The position numbers and the translations under genes were made by a program. The notes below the pieces were generated by a model. That model was given only the letters and a program-made list of their open reading frames with translations, had not been told where the DNA came from and ran no database searches. A stretch of DNA of 32,000 nucleotides. Origin: Polynucleobacter sp. AP-Reno-20A-A9 (GTDB lineage Bacteria; Pseudomonadota; Gammaproteobacteria; Burkholderiales; Burkholderiaceae). Of this stretch, positions 13,992 through 22,073 are shown in pieces. Positions within the stretch are counted from its first letter, which is position 1; every line of letters starts with the position of its first letter. Where the stretch lies: NCBI RefSeq assembly GCF_018882085.1, contig NZ_JACVPB010000015.1:6418-38417 (forward strand), given 5' to 3'.

Positions 13992-14036
13992 TGGTGGGTC
14001 GGGCGAGATTCGAACTCGCGACCAACGGATTAAAAG
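13992..14036 (-). repeat. tRNA-Lys(UUU) 3' fragment (45 nt), distal att repeat of island A
   Basis: The minus strand reads CTTTTAATCCGTTGGTCGCGAGTTCGAATCTCGCCCGACCCACCA. That is the anticodon loop CUUUUAA, variable loop, T-arm GCGAG/TTCGAAT/CTCGC, acceptor 3' strand and CCA. It is identical to 20557..20601. No D-arm or acceptor 5' strand precedes it. Confidence 0.85.
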
Positions 14037-14268
14037 ACGCTTGCTTGACCGTCTTTCACTATGTAAATCAAACACATAATGCGTGCCGTCAATGTTGTGT
14101 GCTGTTTTTGTGCTTGTGTGTAATGCTGTTTCTACGCTTTTAAGTTGCGTAAATGTGTATCTACCTGCGCATACCATTTGCGCATAGCCTCTCATCCCCA
14201 CACCACTCGGTTTTGTTTTTACACATATTTCACGCATAAACCACTGTTTTTTGCGTGTTTTTACGCAT

Positions 14269-14472
14269 TCAAGGTTTGAGTGCGTTTGTCCGACGCTGTT
14301 GTTCCTTGCGTTTGCGTTCATTGTCACGCTGTTGTCGTTGCCGTTCTCGTTCCTGTTGTAGTCGTTGCCTGTCACGCTCAACACTTTGCTGTAGTCCGTG
14401 TATGCGTGCTTGCGCTGGATTGAGTGGGGGTTTTGGTTTGATAGGGCGGAGGGTGATTTCGTATATGCGCAT
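14269..14472 (-). CDS. hypothetical Arg/Gln/Glu-rich small protein
   Basis: MRIYEITLRPIKPKPP...QRLQQERERQRQQRDNERKRKEQQRR. Low complexity, no clear RBS. It is last in a same-strand string of small ORFs. Confidence 0.25.
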   Translation of the reverse strand: MRIYEITLRPIKPKPPLNPAQARIHGLQQSVERDRQRLQQERERQRQQRDNERKRKEQQRRTNALKP

Positions 14473-14558
14473 ACTGTATTTAACAGCGACCAAACAATAT
14501 CACTCACCCCCACATTATTCACGCATACCCCCACCCATACTTTCGCACACCCTATACT

Positions 14559-14708
14559 TTAGTTTGACACTTCTGTGTAACTCAGCACATTACCCTCGCC
14601 GTATTGCGCCTCACCCAAGCGTTTTGCGAGATAGTCGTTTTCAGCATACACCAGCGTGTTTGCTGTTTGTGTTTGACTAATGCGCACCCACAGTCTGTAT
14701 TGTTTCAT
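14559..14708 (-). CDS. hypothetical 49-aa protein (not in the ORF track)
   Basis: My translation is MKQYRLWVRISQTQTANTLVYAENDYLAKRLGEAQYGEGNVLSYTEVSN. Its ATG overlaps the TGA of the upstream gene as ATGA (14705..14708), which suggests translational coupling. Confidence 0.4.
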   Translation of the reverse strand: MKQYRLWVRISQTQTANTLVYAENDYLAKRLGEAQYGEGNVLSYTEVSN

Positions 14709-15145
14709 TTTGTAAATCCTTCACGCAGTTTAGTTGCCGCATTTTCAATCGCTGTATCTAACTCGCCAGCACTTACAGCCGTTTTAATCACATCCAAAAC
14801 TTTCACTAAATCTTTTTCAGTGCCAACTTCTACAGCAAACTTGCCTTTGCCCAGCTCCAACACTTTGCTACCGTAGCGCACACTGATTGCCAGTTTGCCG
14901 TTGTCTGTAACAAACCACCAAGGTTTTACACACACATCGGTTTCCACTTGTTTGCGTGCGCCTGTATCAATATCAGCAACACTGCGGAACTTTTTGACGC
15001 TAAAACTTGTGCCAGTTTGTTGCGCCCGTGCTAACTCTGTTTGTTGCCAGATGCGTTTAATCAACTTATTCCTGCGCTGTAGCACTTGCGGGATTTGTGT
15101 CGGTTTCTTTGCGTCTGTTAGCTTTAGTGTGTTTAAGTTGCTCAT
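14705..15145 (-). CDS. hypothetical 146-aa protein
   Basis: Start taken at MSNLNTLKL (ATG 15145), 8 nt after AAAGGA. It contains ...VCVKPWWFVTDNGKLAISVRYGSKVLELGKGK.... I have a vague recollection of a similar island-borne DUF family but cannot verify it. Confidence 0.6.
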   Translation of the reverse strand: MSNLNTLKLTDAKKPTQIPQVLQRRNKLIKRIWQQTELARAQQTGTSFSVKKFRSVADIDTGARKQVETDVCVKPWWFVTDNGKLAISVRYGSKVLELGKGKFAVEVGTEKDLVKVLDVIKTAVSAGELDTAIENAATKLREGFTK

Positions 15146-15309
15146 TTGTGTATCCTTTTCTGTTGTGTGTTTTAGCAACTGTAGTTTCGGTATTACCAAA
15201 CTCGCAACCTCTTTTTGCCTTCAAATCTTTTTTGTCCAAAATCACACAAATCCACCTAATATTGCGTCAGATTTTGTTACATATTGTTTGGTCGTTACTA
15301 AATAAATGT

Positions 15310-15654
15310 ATGAACGATATTACTTACAACATACAAAGACGAGAGAAGCGTGACACCGAACTTGCTGACGCTTGGTTGCGTGGCATAGGTGTAGATGTAG
15401 GCAGTTTTGGAACAACTAAACCGAACTTACTCAAAGCGCAACAGACAGCTACTAAACTGCTAACTGAACATATTGGTGTTTTGGACAAATCTACTAAACG
15501 CTTTATTGAGTATTTCCAGTCACGCTACAGTTGCGTTAAAAAGCGCAAACACATTACGGACGGCGATTGTTTCCGTATTCTCAATCTACACAGTCGCATA
15601 TTGCGCGGTGAGTATCGCAGTAACAGGCGCAAACGCAGAACAACACAGGCATAA
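15310..15654 (+). CDS. hypothetical 114-aa basic protein
   Basis: Internal ATG of the 185-aa ORF (MNDITYNIQRREKRD...), with an Arg/Lys-rich C-terminus. No clear RBS. Divergent from the 146-aa gene. Confidence 0.35.
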   Translation: MNDITYNIQRREKRDTELADAWLRGIGVDVGSFGTTKPNLLKAQQTATKLLTEHIGVLDKSTKRFIEYFQSRYSCVKKRKHITDGDCFRILNLHSRILRGEYRSNRRKRRTTQA

Positions 15655-16516
15655 ATCAGGCACATTCAAAACGCAGATAAACACTGCGCTAACAAAGGTA
15701 AAAACTCCACTTGTAATATAACGGCTAATGAGGTGGAACTTGCGACACATACACTGTAGAGTTGTGTCGCACATAAGTTGATGCCGAAGTTTTAATACAA
15801 ACGCAAATCAATGCCGCAGTAGTTTGGAAGTTTCAATACATCAGTCTTCCATATTAAAAAACTTTCTACAGTGCGTGTGACAGTCTTTTTACCGTCACGC
15901 ACAGCGCAACGACTAATAGCGACAGATTCGTCTCCGCTATAGCCGTTGCGTGATCTAATCATTCTCCGTCAATCAAACAGCACCAAAAGCAACTGCGTTG
16001 CTTTCGGCTTTCTTCTATTATGTTTATATGTGTTGTGAAGAGATAAATGTGTGAGCGCAAGCGATACACAAGCGAACTGCGTTCGCTTTCACCCTACCAG
16101 TTAGATATAAATCACCAGCACCACAGATCTTGAGCACCTAAAAAAACTGCGCAACTAAAAATACAGGGCTACGAACTGATTTTGGGTAGCACTACGCAAC
16201 AGCACATCAAATCCGTCTTGTAAGCGCAGATTATCGGTATTCGTAGAGCGCAGTAGCAGATTGACACACACGCACGCTGTAGCGTGTTTTAACAAGTCTT
16301 GTCGTTCAAACTGCGCTCTGTAGTCTAAATGCCACATTCATCACGCATTTTTGCGGTAAATACACGACCAAAGAGAAGTTACAAAGTCACAACACCACGA
16401 CGCAACCAGTTGTTTTTTAACAGATTGCGCCACTTACACAGCACAAAACTGTTTCGGTTGCTCATTTGCTACCAAAGAACACATACTTATTACGCACATA
16501 TTATTAGGAGAACGCA
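15655..16516. other. 860-bp ORF-poor, hairpin-dense non-coding region (candidate ncRNA, oriT, or recombinase substrate)
   Basis: Stem-loops at 15741..15771 (9 bp), 15871..15902, 15905..15950 (two-tier), 15986..16004 and 16070..16088 (twin 8-bp stems with an identical TGC loop). ACTGCG occurs five times on one strand. Direct repeats ATGCCG...GAAGTTT(T/C)AATACA are at 15781..15800 and 15811..15840. Confidence 0.5.
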
Positions 16517-17104
16517 ATGGCACAGGCAAAATCACTGACGCAACAAGATATCGACAAAGTTTTAACTTACATCGCATCAAACACGAACGCTACACGCAAC
16601 AGGGCGATGTTTTTGCTTACGGTGCTGGCTGGGCTTCGCGTCTCGGAAGTTGCGCAACTGACACTGGGTGATGTGCGCAATAGTGACGGCACTGTTAAAT
16701 CCCAAGTGTTTCTAAGTAGCGATCGTGTAAAACACGGACACGCACGCACCGTGTTTATCAGCACACACTTACAGCAGGAACTTGCCACATACCTTGCTAC
16801 ACGCACAGCGTTTGATGACACATTTCCGTTGTTTAACACGCTACGAGGCGCGCGGAAGGCATTTACTGCTTCCACACTCACCCAGCACTTTCACTATCTG
16901 TATCGTCGTGCGTTAGTGTTCGGTGCCAGCTCACATTCAGGCAGACGCACATTTTTGACCACTTTGAGTAACTCGGGCATCAGCGTGTTTGTTTTAGCAA
17001 GTTTGGCGGGGCACAAGAACATCGCTACAACTCAAAGGTATGTTACCGTAAACGACGATCAAAAGCGCAGGGCAGTAGATTGCTTTAGCTTACAAGTTGC
17101 TTAA
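16517..17104 (+). CDS. small tyrosine recombinase (FimB/FimE-sized, 195 aa)
   Basis: AGGAG lies 7 nt before the ATG. Catalytic positions are readable: GLRVSE (Arg), HSGRRTF (His-x-x-Arg), GHKNIATTQRY (His...Tyr). There is no arm-binding N-terminal domain. Confidence 0.8.
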   Translation: MAQAKSLTQQDIDKVLTYIASNTNATRNRAMFLLTVLAGLRVSEVAQLTLGDVRNSDGTVKSQVFLSSDRVKHGHARTVFISTHLQQELATYLATRTAFDDTFPLFNTLRGARKAFTASTLTQHFHYLYRRALVFGASSHSGRRTFLTTLSNSGISVFVLASLAGHKNIATTQRYVTVNDDQKRRAVDCFSLQVA

Positions 17105-18087
17105 TCTCGCTCGCCGTAGATAAACTCACGCAACTTATTCATCTTGCTCTTTAGCGTGTCTTTCTGTTCCTGTGTTTGTGCTGGCTGTTTTGGTATTTCG
17201 GGCAACACATACGCTATGTCGCACGCTACAACTAATAGCATCATCAGCACGCTTTCTTCACGCTTTAGTCGTTTGGACAGTTTTGGTTTGCCACTGCTTT
17301 GCGCAAAATGACTTTTACTACCACGCACTCTCGGTATTGCGTCAGCATCTATTCCAACTGTTCTGTCGTAACCTTTGTCAAAATCCACATCTCTGTCCAT
17401 CCACGCATCTAATCTCGCACGCATATCCGCACCGTAGTCACCACGCTCTACACATCCATACTGTTCTTCTAAATATTCCAGCGCTTCTTCATACAGTTTT
17501 TCTGCTTGTCTTGATACTTTTGTGCGTGTCGTTGTTGTTCCTGCGTTCGTGCCAGCCATTTTCTCGTATCTGCCATTCATCAAGTCTGCTTTATTGAGCT
17601 TCTTGTTGTATGTCTTTAGGAACTCTGGCATTTCGTCATATAGTATTTCTTCACTGTGTCGTATTTCTTCCAGCGTCGTTTCGTAGCTACTGTATTCACT
17701 CTCGCTCAAAATACTGCGTAGACGAGTAGTTCGCACGCTCATACCATCCAGTATGTCGTTCATCAGCACATTTATTTTGTGTAGTTTGACTGTTTGTGCG
17801 TCGTCTATTTGCTCGAGACCGAACGCACTTGTGTTGTATGTATGTTCTGGTTTCGCATCTACATAGTCGCTTTCAGCAAACTCCACGACACCACCGACTA
17901 CATTATCGTGTCCTTGTGTGTGCCGAACACGCCCCTGATATAGCAGTGCTGGTATGTGATAGTTTTCATACGCAATGTCATCAATGCGTTTAGCAACACG
18001 GGTCAGCGTTTCCCGTGTTGCTTCTTGTATCGCTACTGCGTCTAACTTACGAGCTTTTTTTCTTCGCTGTGCTTTTGCGTGTTCCAC
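17101..18087 (-). CDS. hypothetical 328-aa protein
   Basis: Long ORF with a basic N-terminus (AKAQRRKKARK) and an acidic middle, no motif I recognise. Its stop overlaps the convergent recombinase stop (TTAA 17101..17104). Confidence 0.6.
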   Translation of the reverse strand: MEHAKAQRRKKARKLDAVAIQEATRETLTRVAKRIDDIAYENYHIPALLYQGRVRHTQGHDNVVGGVVEFAESDYVDAKPEHTYNTSAFGLEQIDDAQTVKLHKINVLMNDILDGMSVRTTRLRSILSESEYSSYETTLEEIRHSEEILYDEMPEFLKTYNKKLNKADLMNGRYEKMAGTNAGTTTTRTKVSRQAEKLYEEALEYLEEQYGCVERGDYGADMRARLDAWMDRDVDFDKGYDRTVGIDADAIPRVRGSKSHFAQSSGKPKLSKRLKREESVLMMLLVVACDIAYVLPEIPKQPAQTQEQKDTLKSKMNKLREFIYGERD

Positions 18088-18283
18088 TACTTTTAGTAGC
18101 TTTTGCCTTGAACACCCCGCGCAGTTTAGTTTGTGTAAAACCGTGTAACTTGATTAGTGCTTTAACAGTTTCTAAATCTTCTGCTTCAGCATCCTTCTTC
18201 AGTTTCTCAATCTCCGCATCTTCTGTTTTGCGTTTGTCGTAGATTTCTTTTAGACGCTGACTTGCTGTTAGTGTTTCACTCAT
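18047..18283 (-). CDS. truncated H-NS-like protein (N-terminal oligomerisation part and linker only)
   Basis: Start at MSETLTASQ, 4 nt after AAAGGAGAA. The coiled-coil N-terminus, then ..VKALIKLHGFTQTKL.. and a basic linker, resemble the H-NS dimerisation and linker architecture. The C-terminal DNA-binding motif (TW.GRG) is absent. Confidence 0.4.
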   Translation of the reverse strand: MSETLTASQRLKEIYDKRKTEDAEIEKLKKDAEAEDLETVKALIKLHGFTQTKLRGVFKAKATKSSGTRKSTAKKKSS

Positions 18284-18315
18284 TGTTTTCTCCTTTAAAT
18301 GTATCAATTTCTAAA

Positions 18316-18951
18316 TTAAATCTTCTTTAATTTATTGCGTTGAATTAAATCAATTAAAACGCTTATTGAAAGCGCTAAGAATATTGAGAGCGCTATTCCA
18401 CCGCCTAATATTTTATTGAGTTGACCACTGTATTTCAGTGTAGTTGTTTCTGTTTCACCAATTTGTTTGGATTCTGTTGATGTTGATGCCGTATCAATTA
18501 AACTTACCACTTGTTTATTATCTTGTTTAACCGCAGTCAATAACTTGATGAATTCTTTACGCTTCTCACTTAATATCTTCTTGTGCGCATTTATTATTTC
18601 ATCCACCATATTTCTTACATTAGTTTTTGATTCGTCGATAGATACATTTTTGGACGAAACTTGAACAACTCGAGTATTTTTTATTGGATTAATTGTTGCG
18701 TTTTTGGTGTAGATATATTTCATCTGATCTACAGGCTCAATCACTTGCTGCCCATTAAAGTAAAAACGCTCACCAACAAGAATATTCGCAGTGCTTTCAT
18801 ACAGCGTAGGTCTTGTAAACGCAAACACCAGCACCATTAGTGTGAGTGTAGAAAATATAAGAATGATTGTTTTATATTGACGATTTAAAAAATTCCAAAC
18901 ATCAACAATACTTAATTCATCTTCGCTATCAATTTCTGGACGCATATTCAT
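18316..18951 (-). CDS. mini Wzz-like polysaccharide co-polymerase (chain-length determinant) family protein
   Basis: Start at ATG 18951, 7 nt after GGAG. DELSIVDVWNFLNRQYKTIILIF...TRPTLYESTANILV matches the Wzz N-terminal motif plus TM1. The C-terminal LGGGIALSIFLALSISVLIDLI is TM2. The periplasmic part is only about 150 aa. The gene is markedly AT-rich. Confidence 0.55.
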   Translation of the reverse strand: MNMRPEIDSEDELSIVDVWNFLNRQYKTIILIFSTLTLMVLVFAFTRPTLYESTANILVGERFYFNGQQVIEPVDQMKYIYTKNATINPIKNTRVVQVSSKNVSIDESKTNVRNMVDEIINAHKKILSEKRKEFIKLLTAVKQDNKQVVSLIDTASTSTESKQIGETETTTLKYSGQLNKILGGGIALSIFLALSISVLIDLIQRNKLKKI

Positions 18952-19091
18952 AGCGAACTCCAATCTATCAATTCATAAAGAATGTATGAAATTACAGATA
19001 AGGAAAGGAGTGTGAGAAATATTACAAATAACAGCGCAGGCTTTGTGAATCGTATTTCGCGGCGAGTTAATCCACTGTTACCTAAAGTGTC

Positions 19092-19104
19092 GGGGGGGGG
19101 GGGG
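19092..19104. repeat. G13 (C13 on the coding strand) homopolymer tract
   Basis: Counted directly as 13 consecutive G. It is intergenic, 83 nt after the integrase stop and 141 nt upstream of the Wzz-like ATG. Confidence 0.95.
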
Positions 19105-19186
19105 ACTTTACAATCATATTTTTTCCATAATTTTTAAAAATAATAGCACTATTTTCTAAATTTTAAAAATATTATCTCCGTTCAGT

Positions 19187-20455
19187 TTAAGCTAACCTAT
19201 CCGCCGCCATTGTTGCTGTCAGCTTGCTGTAGTGCTGTTCAATCATTAGTGCGCTATTTCCCATCTGTTTCGCAAGCGTGTGTATGTCGGTGCCATTCTC
19301 TAACAGTTCCAGCGTCGCATAAGTATGTCGCAAACTGTATAGCGTGCGTGTTTCATTCTGCGCATTCTTTAACAGTCCGCAGTCACGCATTAGTCGTCTA
19401 AATGTTCCGCCGAAGTCTGGCGGTTGATAGTTGTTGCTGAACCTAAACACTTTATGCTTTATGCGTGACACAAATATGTCATTAAACGCAACACTGTTGA
19501 TGTCTGTTTGTCGTGCGTGTAACCGTTTTAACGCATCCAACACATTGTGTTTCGCTATCAGCCAGCGTCCGCCTGTTTTTCCACTTACCCATATACGCAC
19601 ATAGCGCACATCTTTATCTGTGTGCCACTCAATATTGTTCCAACATATATTCATCGCTTCTGTGCCGTGTCGTATTCCTGTATATAGCAACACTTCGACA
19701 TAATCACGCACTAACGGTCTTATCTGTTTTTCAACTTGTGACACTCCACCGTTCTGCCAAGTTTTCATATACTCCAACAAGTAGTCAATCTCGTTTCTGC
19801 TAAACGCAGGTCGTGGTTTGCTTTTCTCACCTAATGTCGTTAGTTTCGGTATTGTTGCGTTCGCACTCAACCAGCCACGCACTACAGCAACGCTTATCAG
19901 CTTATTCCACGCACTTGCGAAGTTGTTGAGTGTTGATGCTTTCGGCGTTCTGTTCATCTGCCTGTTTCTCCACATCTCAAAATCAATCACATCTTTGTGC
20001 GTTATGTCTTCCATTCGTGTTTCGGCGAAGTAGGGCAGGAAGTATTTTTCAATACAAGTGATGTAGTCGTTGTAACTTGTTCTGCCGTTGCGCAAGTCAA
20101 TCTGCTGTTGTAATTCTTTCAGCGTTTCGTGCGCTATTTGTGCGAAGCTGTGTGTTGTGTGTGTTAAACCCAGTCGTTGTCTAAACCGTGCTTCGTCATA
20201 CATTTCGCACGCAACACGCACGGCGTTTTCTACACTTGCTTTGCGTGTGCTAACACGATGCCAAGTTCCGTCTGCTAACTTGTAACGACATTGATACAGT
20301 GGTGATGTTTTTCTGCGGTATATAACAACTTCACCGTCACGCAAGTAAATCACTGTCGGAACAGTTGTAGCGTGTGACGCAACTATCTTGCTTGTTTCAG
20401 TGGGAGAGGTGTTTTCTGCTGTGTGTATTAGTTTTAGATGTGTGAGATTTTTCAC
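19187..20455 (-). CDS. tyrosine integrase of island A
   Basis: 422 aa. TGIRHGTEA (Arg), LYSLRHTYAT (His-x-x-Arg) and MIEQHYSKL (Tyr). It lies immediately 3' of the tRNA-Lys fragment and in the same orientation. Confidence 0.9.
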   Translation of the reverse strand: MKNLTHLKLIHTAENTSPTETSKIVASHATTVPTVIYLRDGEVVIYRRKTSPLYQCRYKLADGTWHRVSTRKASVENAVRVACEMYDEARFRQRLGLTHTTHSFAQIAHETLKELQQQIDLRNGRTSYNDYITCIEKYFLPYFAETRMEDITHKDVIDFEMWRNRQMNRTPKASTLNNFASAWNKLISVAVVRGWLSANATIPKLTTLGEKSKPRPAFSRNEIDYLLEYMKTWQNGGVSQVEKQIRPLVRDYVEVLLYTGIRHGTEAMNICWNNIEWHTDKDVRYVRIWVSGKTGGRWLIAKHNVLDALKRLHARQTDINSVAFNDIFVSRIKHKVFRFSNNYQPPDFGGTFRRLMRDCGLLKNAQNETRTLYSLRHTYATLELLENGTDIHTLAKQMGNSALMIEQHYSKLTATMAADRLA

Positions 20456-20556
20456 AGCACTAAACTAAACAGCGTGGAACAAATGTGCGCACTGTGGCGC
20501 ATTGTGCTGAACTGCTGACGCAAAACGCAAGTGTAAGTTTGCGCTATGTAAAACGA

Positions 20557-20606
20557 TGGTGGGTCGGGCGAGATTCGAACTCGCGACCAACGGATTAAAA
20601 GTCCGC
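20557..20606 (-). pseudogene. 5'-truncated tRNA-Lys(UUU), 50 nt, proximal att repeat of island A
   Basis: It has the same 45 nt as 13992..14036, plus GCGGA, which completes the anticodon stem against TCCGT. The sequence beyond has no D-arm or GGGTCGG acceptor strand. Confidence 0.8.
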
Positions 20607-20768: not shown

Positions 20769-22073
20769 ATGGCTACCAACAAAATAGGCTTTACCGCACC
20801 GAAAATAAGCGCTTTGGAGTGTGAACCGGGCAAGTCGCAGACAATCTATTGGGATAGCAAAACGCCTAGCCTTGGGGTGCGTATCACGCCCACAGGCAAC
20901 AAAGCCTTTATTTTCCAAACATGGTTTAACAATACAAACCTACGCATGACTATTGGCGATGTGAATTCTTGGGCTATTGATAAAGCCCAATCCGAAGCAA
21001 GGCGCTTAAAGGTGCTGACTGACCAAGGAATAGACCCTAGAGAACAAAAAGCCGATTTAAAAGCTAAAACCATGGCGCGAAAGCTAAAAGGTATTCAAGG
21101 GCTGGAAGTCTGGAAGGATTACATCGCAGACCGCAAAGACCAATGGGGTAAACGGCATTTATTCGACCATGACGATATGGTTAAAGCTGGTGGTGGCAAA
21201 TTCACTAGAGGATTGCGACCTGGACAACCAAAGACTAGGCAACCCGGCATTCTTGTTAGCTTGCTATCACTACCAATTAACGAAATAACTAGGGATAAGG
21301 TAGCACTATGGCTAAAGAAGGAAGTCCTAAAAAGACCTACCCGCGCTCGGTTAGCTTTATCACTACTTAAAGCCTTCATTACTTGGGCAAGTGACCAACC
21401 CAAATATAAGGCGCTAGTTGATGTAAGTGCTTGTGACCGATTAACCAGGGAATTGCCAAGTAAGCAAGCCAAAGATGATTGTTTGCAGAAAGAGCAATTA
21501 AGCCTTTGGTTTGAAGGCGTTAGGCAAATCAATAACCCGGTAATTAGTTATTACCTTCAAATCTTGTTATTGACCGGTGCAAGGCGTAATGAGTTGTCCA
21601 CCCTAAAGTGGGTAGATGTTGATACCCAATGGCATACCGCTTTAATTAGGGATAAGGTTGAAGGCAGTCGAAAAATACCGCTTACGCCCTATGTTGAATT
21701 ACTACTTAACAACCTAAAAAGGGTGAATAAGTATGTATTCGCAAGCCCTACGGCTAAAAGTAAACATATAACTGAACCACGCATAGCCCATAAGCAAGCT
21801 ATGGAAGCTATGGGATTGCCACCGCTAACCTTGCAAGGGTTAAGAAGGTCATTCGGAACATTGGCAGAGTGGACAGAATGCCCGGCTGGCATTAGCGCCC
21901 AAATAATGGGACATAAGCCTTCCGCATTGGTGGAAAAGCATTACCGGAAGCGTCCAATTGATTTACTACGTCAATGGCACTCGAAGATTGAAAAATTTAT
22001 TCTTGATGAAGCAGGCATACCGCAACCAAAAGATGGCGCTAAGCGTTTGCGCGTTGTAAATGCGGACACTTGA
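20769..22073 (+). CDS. P4-type tyrosine integrase with DUF4102-like arm-binding N-terminus
   Basis: 434 aa. The N-terminus ...KISALECEPGKSQTIYWDSKTPSLGVRITPTGNKAFIFQ is typical of DUF4102 integrases. TGARRNEL (Arg) and IMGHKPSALVEKHY (His...Tyr) are present. The His-x-x-Arg box reads QGLRR, so the first His is Gln. Confidence 0.9.
   Translation: MATNKIGFTAPKISALECEPGKSQTIYWDSKTPSLGVRITPTGNKAFIFQTWFNNTNLRMTIGDVNSWAIDKAQSEARRLKVLTDQGIDPREQKADLKAKTMARKLKGIQGLEVWKDYIADRKDQWGKRHLFDHDDMVKAGGGKFTRGLRPGQPKTRQPGILVSLLSLPINEITRDKVALWLKKEVLKRPTRARLALSLLKAFITWASDQPKYKALVDVSACDRLTRELPSKQAKDDCLQKEQLSLWFEGVRQINNPVISYYLQILLLTGARRNELSTLKWVDVDTQWHTALIRDKVEGSRKIPLTPYVELLLNNLKRVNKYVFASPTAKSKHITEPRIAHKQAMEAMGLPPLTLQGLRRSFGTLAEWTECPAGISAQIMGHKPSALVEKHYRKRPIDLLRQWHSKIEKFILDEAGIPQPKDGAKRLRVVNADT

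Follow-up and report, generated by a model that had tools for sequence, protein, structure and literature searches.

Genomic Setting of the Noncoding Region

The closest genomes to the 32,000-nt stretch of DNA analyzed here (the window, from Polynucleobacter sp. AP-Reno-20A-A9, contig NZ_JACVPB010000015.1) are those of Polynucleobacter. The window contains a 6.5-kb island (14037–20556) bounded by tRNA-Lys repeats, with the gene order DUF6641 (−), a small open reading frame (ORF) that we call ORF-X (+), a long noncoding region, a minimal tyrosine recombinase (TR, +), two orphan genes (−), and a full-length integrase (−). The subject of this analysis is the 860-nt noncoding core of the island (15655–16516), which ends at the start of the TR gene and consists of a 5′ module with helices P1–P7 and hairpins P8 and P9, a variable spacer, and a 3′ module; coordinates are collected in Table 1. 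An initial annotation had called this region rich in hairpins and had listed four possible roles for it: an invertible or excisable switch, an origin of transfer (oriT) or single-stranded DNA (ssDNA) site, an iteron array, and a large structured noncoding RNA.

The individual features that had been described are present. The 9-bp stem at 15741–15749/15763–15771 can be read directly in the sequence, and we confirmed the bulged stem GTGCGTG-TG-AC/GT-CACGCAC (15871–15902), the two-tier stem formed by CGCAACG/CGTTGCG (15905–15911/15944–15950) and ATAGCG/CGCTAT (15916–15921/15935–15940), and the near-twin hairpins at 15986–16004 and 16070–16088. This structure goes beyond chance, as the 424-nt 5′ part folds better than shuffled sequences and the stems are kept by compensatory changes in relatives. 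The region is also noncoding, as had been proposed: the longest ORFs differ in strand and position among 19 full-length relatives, three of which have no ORF longer than 49 aa. A long complement between 15854–15879 and 16267–16292 shows no covariation in relatives and was set aside as specific to the window.

The repeated words fared differently. ACTGCG does occur on the + strand at 15683, 15992, 16076, 16146, and 16310, and we find it on the − strand at 15815 and 16249 as well; the whole window holds 25 copies, compared with 13.0 ± 3.9 in shuffles, and 7 of the 25 fall within the 860 nt. The motif ACTGCG is not kept in relatives: one copy forms the covarying 3′ arm of P1, and two are hairpin loops whose letters in relatives are TGC, GCA, or others. 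The direct repeats ATGCCG..GAAGTTT(T/C)AATACA within 15781–15840 are present in the window, with a first copy that is specific to its lineage, and relatives do not keep them either. The direct repeats and the recurring ACTGCG (or AACTGCG) might point to an iteron array or to an origin for replication of the excised island, but such a role is hardly credible in view of this lack of conservation; protein family scans found no replication initiator gene in the island, and the conserved features are stems and loops rather than spaced direct repeats.

Conservation of the Element with TR

We gathered 5 genome loci and 80 metagenome loci with relatives of TR (named by L-numbers) and sought homologues of the region by iterated nhmmer. 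A homologue was found in essentially every locus with enough upstream DNA, in each case on the + strand and ending where TR starts. In about 65 loci, an element of ∼850 nt abuts the start of a 190–195-aa recombinase on the same (+) strand, down to 49% TR identity, and in L002, the second TR (52% identical) comes with a proximal block of its own. P1–P7 are missing from about half of the family, which instead carries a conserved "type B" block of ∼110 nt before P8–P9. Type B was noted in L034 (2369–2720), L016, L040, L043, L063, L066, L068, L077, and L082; L034 contains both kinds of 5′ block in tandem, each with its own P8–P9 unit. We found no close DNA relatives of the region on plasmids. A match in IMG/VR (L089) was considered as a phage and rejected, since it is the same island.

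Covarying Fold of the 5′ Module

The first ∼420 nt of the element (15669–16090) contain at least 10 helices and a pseudoknot. Compensatory changes are already visible in a four-way alignment, and RNAalifold, applied to 20 sequences, returns 44 pairs, 31 of which carry double changes. A covariance model, R1, was built from ten helices read by the author (P1–P7 and sub-helices). It matches 25 full-length loci at 113–253 bits, plus L089, all on the + strand upstream of TR. In the R1 alignment, 82.1% of cells are paired vs 65.0% in shuffles, 53 of 64 pairs have changed on both sides, and the covariation score is 0.389 vs 0.150 in shuffles, with none of 500 shuffles scoring as high; when the partners are slid by 1–3 columns, the score falls to 0.095 or less. 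The pseudoknot PK1, which pairs CTGTAGA in the P3 loop with TCTACAG beside P4, lies outside the covariance model and had no part in fitting the alignment; even so, 99.3% of it is paired, with double changes in 6 of 6 counted pairs. P4 and P6 are poorly registered by the model (∼50–66% paired) and are counted as read by eye only. A de novo helix scan that allowed shifts of ±3 was too permissive and was discarded.

Three loops of 15–20 nt are nearly invariant: those of P4a and P5 and the 20-nt loop of P2 (TTGTAATATRACGGCTAATGA). The RNA-like fold belongs to none of the Rfam families: Rfam 15 gives 0 matches in the window at the gathering score and three chance-level matches only at E ≤ 10, and our literature search found no paper on it. 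In the 46 well-supported pairs, G-U/U-G combinations outnumber A-C/C-A by 75 to 11, from which it follows that the folding strand is the TR-sense strand; G-U occurs at one pair in up to 16 of 27 sequences. Thermodynamics cannot separate the strands, as the single-sequence folding z of the 424 nt is −2.85 (+) and −4.39 (−) relative to shuffles. Together, the covariation, the pseudoknot, the wobble bias toward the recombinase sense, and the long invariant loops fit the large structured RNA among the roles first proposed. The invariant P2 loop (GACGGCTA, 15720–15728) has the same sequence as the P7 5′ strand (15909–15917) and could pair with the invariant P7 3′ strand (TAGCCGTC, 15938–15946), which may represent an alternative pairing or a switch. 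As DNA, the P2 loop and the P7 strands would look like three copies of one site. The optional terminator-like hairpin at 15986–16004 is found in about half of the full-length relatives and is deleted in the rest.

The same fold could be explained without any RNA function if the + strand folds as ssDNA and TR acts on DNA hairpins; such a strand could be an attC-like recombination substrate, the strand that an oriT transfers, or a single-strand initiation site. P8 and P9 correspond to the hairpin units of a DNA oriT (see below), the two-tier stem of P7 resembles attC and varies at its tip, folding of the window is no worse on the − strand, and a promoter scan found no sigma-70-type site on the + strand of 14600–17400. 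Against this stand the frequent G-U pairs and the combination of a 7-bp loop-to-distal pseudoknot with three invariant loops, which is typical of RNAs and, to our knowledge, unprecedented in oriT or attC sites. In 19 loci, the stop codon of ORF-X lies 5–30 nt before P1 or overlaps P1, so there is no room for a separate promoter, and the tight junction suggests cotranscription. Moreover, the minimal oriTs known for the MobK/SGI1 class span 125–186 bp (PMC6414798, PMC8152469), not 420–850 bp. On balance, we judge a purely single-stranded DNA role to be quite unlikely.

Hairpins P8 and P9 and the pIGRK oriT Motif

The 5′ module closes with two hairpins, P8 and P9. P9 is 96.8% paired in 26 loci, with double changes in 4 of 6 pairs, and was also recovered in a de novo scan; its sequence is largely conserved as AAGCGAAC/GTTCGCTT. 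The loop of P8 presents the motif GAGCR-N0-4-AGCGA. About 36 of ∼86 loci, including distant relatives that are without P1–P7, have this motif on the + strand upstream of TR. Its distance to the TR start is 430–640 nt in most loci, 190–370 nt in two distant loci, and 840–1630 nt in five loci with insertions. Over all loci (576 kb), the motif matches 49 times in the forward and 11 times in the reverse direction.

Plasmid pIGRK contains the same motif three times (1074, 1130, and 1192) upstream of mobK, always on the strand of that gene and always in the loop of an inverted repeat. This pIGRK region is an experimentally mapped oriT, which MobK binds and nicks via Y179, and its AGCGA words were noted by the authors of that work (PMC8152469). 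The hairpin-presented motif is kept in MobK relatives at 85% and 74% identity, one of which carries GAGCGACAGCGA, the loop of L004 and L030. Conserved hairpins with a repeat unit of the pIGRK oriT thus lie upstream of the TR gene and form a putative oriT. The oriT or ssDNA option of the initial annotation agrees with this, as it does with the placement of the region in a 6.5-kb island with tRNA-Lys att repeats and an integrase.

Cargo Spacer and 3′ Module

In relatives, insertions of 390–1280 nt directly after P9 contain complete ORFs on either strand, which makes the spacer a cargo hot spot. No repeated terminal hairpin accompanies the ORFs inserted in L034, L074, L040, and L018. Since cargo ORFs can stand between P9 and the 3′ part, P1–P9 and the 3′ part are not one obligatory continuous molecule. 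In L010 (about 1400–1560), the variable spacer after P9 holds a tandem repeat, (GGCTAATGGTTAAT)n.

These insertions bear on a reading in which RNA and TR would form a recombinase unrelated to conjugation, with the RNA binding TR and supplying DNA recognition or assembly for site-specific recombination. Possible reactions would be cargo capture beside P9, resolution of multimers or tandem arrays, and control of excision. The fold, its strand, and the invariant loops suit this reading, as do the obligate linkage of an RNA-like element to TR, the single hot spot for cargo genes after P9, and the frequency of tandem islands; in L034, moreover, the two P8–P9 units join two different 5′ blocks, as a cointegrate would. 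On the other hand, the conserved loops are the same in all islands and so cannot be programmable guides, the island of the window has no second P8–P9 copy to recombine with, and the motif shared with pIGRK points to an oriT-type site. We regard an RNA–protein recombinase of this kind as unlikely.

The 3′ module is the part common to the most distant relatives, with an nhmmer match in almost every locus down to 49–52% TR identity. It is conserved mainly as primary sequence, and its structural support is modest: P11 is 65% paired vs a shuffle maximum of 61% and is degenerate in the window, and P13 does no better than shuffles. A long helix, P10, was rejected as a general feature because it is present in a subset of loci only. 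The 3′ module looks like the promoter or leader of TR. In a wider version of this idea, the whole 850 nt would be a structured 5′ untranslated or intercistronic region that controls the translation or stability of the TR mRNA. Conservation continues unbroken to the GGAG ribosome-binding site, no part is shared more widely than the proximal 3′ block, and the element and the TR gene are on the same strand. In L034, L040, and L018, however, opposite-strand cargo genes part the 5′ module from the TR gene, so that the 5′ module cannot belong to one leader there. No riboswitch or leader in Rfam matches, and structural support is weakest beside the TR gene. A cis-regulatory leader of this length strikes us as very unlikely.

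The Minimal Recombinase

TR is a catalytic domain only; no core-binding or arm-binding domain was found. Residues R41, K72, H140, R143, H166, and Y175 are invariant in 26 relatives, and the best relatives in the PDB, XerA/C/D, match by their C-terminal domains only. The family comprises 5,543 proteins in metagenomes at E ≤ 1e-10, mostly of 190 aa, and a single scan returned more than 560 loci. TR falls far short of the cutoffs of the named recombinase models: 79 bits vs 220 for XerA, 65 vs 335 for XerC, and 60 vs 330 for XerD, all aligning with TR over the C-terminal half only; 28.9 vs 265 (TIGR02249) and 15.9 vs 435 (NF011946) for integron integrases; and 41 (E 1.5e-10) vs 221 (NF007370) and 19.5 vs 222 (NF007371) for the Fim models. 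The description of TR as a minimal, FimB/FimE-sized tyrosine recombinase is accurate in size and domain content, whereas membership in the Fim invertase family is not borne out by the scores. TR has some traits of MOB_M relaxases in that it is a lone catalytic domain with R-K-H-R-H and the tyrosine present, located in an island with an integrase nearby; 96% of MOB_M relaxases are found near an integrase (bioRxiv 10.64898/2026.01.13.699239).

Island and Neighboring Genes

The 45-nt att repeats span the tRNA-Lys(UUU) from the anticodon loop to CCA, and the terminator of this tRNA comes after the repeat at 13992–14036 on the minus strand. ARAGORN found no whole tRNA at either repeat and no intact tRNA gene in the 32-kb window. 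As neither repeat is a whole tRNA gene, the island is one unit of a tandem array. A second, P4-type integrase with an Arm-DNA-binding domain (20769–22073, +) starts directly after the second att repeat, and islands seem to be stacked in tandem at tRNA-Lys. Tandem islands are common among relatives: in L002 (12161–12595), a second module with a 52%-identical recombinase and its own leader lies a few kilobases downstream, and L016 and L056 have extra DUF6641 genes in downstream copies. Such islands therefore often occur in arrays. In L001 (Polynucleobacter sp. UK-Gri1-W3), 95% identity with the window spans 14166–17105 only and ends exactly at the TR stop codon, with cargo genes and an integrase beyond that are unrelated or just 30% identical, which indicates that the module is exchanged as a unit.

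Table 1. Coordinates of Features in the Window and of ORFs Inserted after P9 in Related Loci
Feature	Position or length	Strand	Evidence or remark
att repeat 1, 3′ half of tRNA-Lys(UUU), 45 nt	13992–14036	−	perfect direct repeat with 20557–20601
DUF6641 protein gene	14705–15145	−	Pfam PF20346, E 1.4e-12; constant left neighbor, divergent from ORF-X
ORF-X, small basic all-alpha protein, ∼115 aa	15307–15654	+	tblastn: 20 loci, directly upstream of the element
5′ domain, helices P1–P7	15669–15967	+	covariance model R1
P1	15672–15676/15684–15688
P2	15706–15711/15732–15737		invariant 20-nt loop
P3	15738–15749/15763–15778
PK1	15754–15760/15865–15871	+	pseudoknot, P3 loop
P4	15787–15793/15858–15864
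P4a	15795–15798/15819–15822
P5	15825–15830/15846–15851
P6	15871–15877/15896–15902
P7	15905–15911/15944–15950 and 15916–15921/15935–15940		two-tier stem, variable tip
Optional hairpin AAAGCAAC-TGC-GTTGCTTT	15986–16004	+	terminator scan; terminator-like, then conserved TTCGGC
P8, stem GTGT/ACAC (16049–16052/16066–16069)	16049–16069	+	loop GAGCGCAAGCGA (16053–16064), motif GAGCR-N0-4-AGCGA
P9, AAGCGAAC-TGC-GTTCGCTT (16070–16077/16081–16088)	16070–16088	+	last element of 5′ module
Variable spacer, cargo hot spot	16089–16190	+	insertions in relatives
3′ module, conserved blocks and recombinase leader	16191–16516	+	nhmmer; up to GGAG ribosome-binding site
TR, 195 aa, catalytic domain only	16517–17104	+	PF00589 residues 6–180, E 1.8e-24
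Orphan cargo gene, 328 aa	17101–18087	−	no significant Pfam, NCBIfam, PHROGs, or PADLOC family
Orphan cargo gene, 215 aa	18316–18963	−	no significant Pfam, NCBIfam, PHROGs, or PADLOC family
Full-length integrase, adjoining att repeat 2	19187–20455	−	PF00589 and SAM-like N-terminal domain
att repeat 2, 3′ half of tRNA-Lys, 45 nt	20557–20601	−	perfect direct repeat with 13992–14036
Inserted ORF, L034	236 aa	−
Inserted ORF, L074	254 aa	+
Inserted ORF, L040	135 aa	−
Inserted ORF, L067	317 aa	+

Of 28 loci with an integrase homologue downstream of TR, 27 have it on the opposite strand; 15 of the homologues are 40–63% identical, and the rest are more distant or partial. Relatives of the 328-aa orphan protein lie downstream of the recombinase in six other loci, four over most of the length and two over ∼65 aa. 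Upstream, ORF-X is without a Shine–Dalgarno sequence. Its AlphaFold2 (AF2) model has a core with a predicted local distance difference test score (pLDDT) of ∼90 and no fold match, and profile searches against Pfam and the PDB likewise gave no match; an assignment of ORF-X as an MpsB-like core-binding domain was rejected on these grounds.

A DUF6641 homologue lies 1.0–2.9 kb (mostly 1.0–1.8 kb) upstream of TR on the opposite strand in 42 loci, and two further loci have a copy downstream only. Its AF2 model (pLDDT 75.6) has no match in a PDB fold search; PHROGs places it in a family of unknown function only, PADLOC and phage searches gave nothing, and we found no paper on DUF6641. On the Azospirillum sp. 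B510 plasmid pAB510d, an alphaproteobacterial megaplasmid, a 47%-identical recombinase (L092, 434862–435434) lies 12.8 kb from a 32%-identical DUF6641 protein (421698–422090); the P8 motif is absent upstream of that recombinase. In the window, a 24-nt inverted repeat (88% complementary, 14477–14500/15281–15304) flanks the DUF6641 gene, its right arm overlapping a conserved DNA block just 5′ of the ORF-X start codon (TGGTCGTTACTAAATAAATGTATG). Similar pairs are found in L030, L034, and L066 and not in most loci. The word GCTAAATA (16355–16363 in the window) recurs in many loci at about −1200 (before ORF-X) and −170 (3′ module) from the recombinase start, and, in inverted form, between about −1850 and −2050 on the far side of DUF6641. 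An operator or other protein site would be a possible role; a −10 promoter box was rejected, since the fit is poor.

A fim-like switch worked by the small recombinase would find some encouragement in the size of TR and its weak NF007370 match, in the inverted repeat around the DUF6641 gene, and in the three fixed places of GCTAAATA. Yet no conserved inverted repeats bound the 860-nt region, in line with the failure of the initial annotation to find long-range ones, and every copy of the element as well as all 44 upstream DUF6641 genes are in one orientation. The score of 41 bits is far from the cutoff of 221, and covarying stems are not expected for protein-bound repeats on duplex DNA. An invertible DUF6641 segment was also dismissed because few loci have the inverted repeat and none is inverted. 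An invertible or excisable switch, the first role listed at the outset, is thus extremely unlikely, and the earlier interpretation as a whole is partly supported.

Proposed Function

We tentatively propose, at a likelihood a little short of even, that the region is a mobilization module like those of MobK and SGI1, in which TR would cut a hairpin oriT-type site at P8–P9 with a large RNA as cofactor. The conservation, the fold with its strand, the island setting, the shared motif, and the cargo hot spot are observations, whereas transcription, nicking, mobilization, and the part played by the RNA are inferred. The 5′ module (15669–16090) would be made as a structured RNA of ∼420 nt from the recombinase-sense strand, most likely as a 3′ extension of the ORF-X transcript. 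TR would act like the atypical relaxases MobK and MpsA, recognizing and cutting at the hairpin-presented GAGCR-N-AGCGA of P8–P9, which would serve as an oriT-type or recombination site. As a cofactor or scaffold, the large RNA would take the place of the DNA-binding domain that TR lacks, a role for which the SGI1 RNA between a small ORF and mpsA offers a precedent. Excision and integration would fall to the integrase of the island, and the 3′ module (about 16190–16516), which follows the cargo-tolerating spacer, would contain the promoter or leader of TR. The RNA and DNA readings are compatible, in that an RNA (P1–P9 or P1–P7) and a DNA site (P8–P9) can overlap, as in SGI1.

Several results weigh against this proposal. 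The similarity of TR to MobK (BLASTP E 2e-4 over 62 aa; hhalign E 0.012) is at the generic recombinase level, and neither TcpM (BLASTP E 0.02) nor MpsA (BLASTP E 1.7), which belongs to a different Pfam family, PF12835, is significantly similar; homology to both was rejected on these values and the Pfam family, and BLASTP against MobK, TcpM, and MpsA thus found no specific relatedness to a proven MOB_M member. The P8 motif is absent upstream of 35–47% identical plasmid homologues in Azospirillum, Legionella, and Piscirickettsia and upstream of a 30% identical MobK homologue in Polaromonas. R1 has no match in pIGRK, pCW3, or the mob region of SGI1 (L087), in the last case even at E ≤ 10. The island contains no conjugation genes, and ORF-X is without a fold like that of a core-binding domain. 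The RNA in particular is called into question by the empty promoter scan, by the resemblance of P8 and P9 to units of a DNA site, and by the fact that the covariation and G-T wobble could equally be kept by a folded DNA single strand.

A bolder version, which we think somewhat unlikely, is that P1–P9 would be a new class of ∼420-nt pseudoknotted RNA, the obligate partner of the TR family, standing in for a DNA-binding domain in an RNA-dependent recombinase or relaxase for moving small islands and capturing cargo beside P9.

Among the relaxases of bacterial chromosomes, the recombinase-like ones are reportedly the most common, and the question addressed here is how a catalytic domain alone finds and cuts DNA, a matter in which RNA involvement is hinted at by SGI1 only. 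With hundreds of natural variants that join a covarying fold, a hairpin motif common to a proven oriT, and an enzyme gene, the TR family makes this question directly testable. If a role for the RNA is confirmed, abundant freshwater bacteria would be the source of a large RNA class not yet catalogued, and the module would account for the spread of very small islands (about 6.5 kb) and for their uptake of cargo. Should the RNA role fail, the finding still maps a conserved, putative oriT-type site for an unstudied recombinase family.

Comparison with Known Systems

OLE, GOLLD, ROOL, HEARO/omega RNA, and IS110 bridge RNA are large structured bacterial noncoding RNAs of unknown or partner-linked function. 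The 5′ module is like them in its length of several hundred nucleotides, its many covarying helices, its pseudoknot, and its invariant loops, and like them it is encoded in a mobile element beside a DNA-acting enzyme. It differs in having no match in Rfam 15 and a tyrosine recombinase as its partner, and its conserved loops are constant across insertion sites and so give no hint of a programmable guide. Integrons also combine a tyrosine recombinase with a nearby cargo hot spot, and P7 recalls their two-tier hairpins with a variable tip on one folding strand. Here, in contrast, the integrase models stay far under their cutoffs (28.9 vs 265 bits), the cargo is not flanked by repeated hairpins, and gene order and orientation are different. 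FimB and FimE share with TR a length of ∼200 aa, and TR aligns over residues 5–179 with NF007370, but the score is far under the cutoff, and the region has neither an invertible segment nor an inverted-repeat pair around it.

In SGI1, a promoter, a small dispensable ORF (S022), and a primary RNA of 650–700 nt precede mpsA, and the 3′ part of this RNA is essential for transfer (PMC9299015). Both SGI1 and the present element are integrated islands with their own integrase (PMC9299015, PMC6414798), and in both, a small ORF is followed by an RNA of ∼0.7 kb, inferred in our case, that reaches up to a recombinase-like gene without a core-binding domain. The differences are that MpsA is a 321-aa protein of PF12835 with no significant similarity to TR, that an MpsB-like protein was not found here, and that the GC-rich SGI1 oriT region is without the motif and gives no R1 match. 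A search for the SGI1 oriT in E. coli genomes returned no match, and mpsA was taken from one Salmonella record.

The pIGRK oriT differs in having three motif units, a G-rich tract, a minimal length of 186 bp, and nothing like P1–P7; it belongs to a 2.3-kb plasmid rather than an integrated island, and relaxase activity, which is only proposed for TR, has been demonstrated for MobK. TR and MobK both consist of the PF00589 catalytic domain only and align collinearly over residues 7–181, with tyrosine 175 of TR opposite tyrosine 179 of MobK. In both systems, a long hairpin-rich noncoding region lies directly upstream of the gene on the same strand, and the GAGCR-N-AGCGA unit is presented in hairpin loops. 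As in the cargo-bearing relatives of TR, an inserted gene separates the site from the recombinase in a pIGRK relative (L096), where it stands between the oriT region and mobK.

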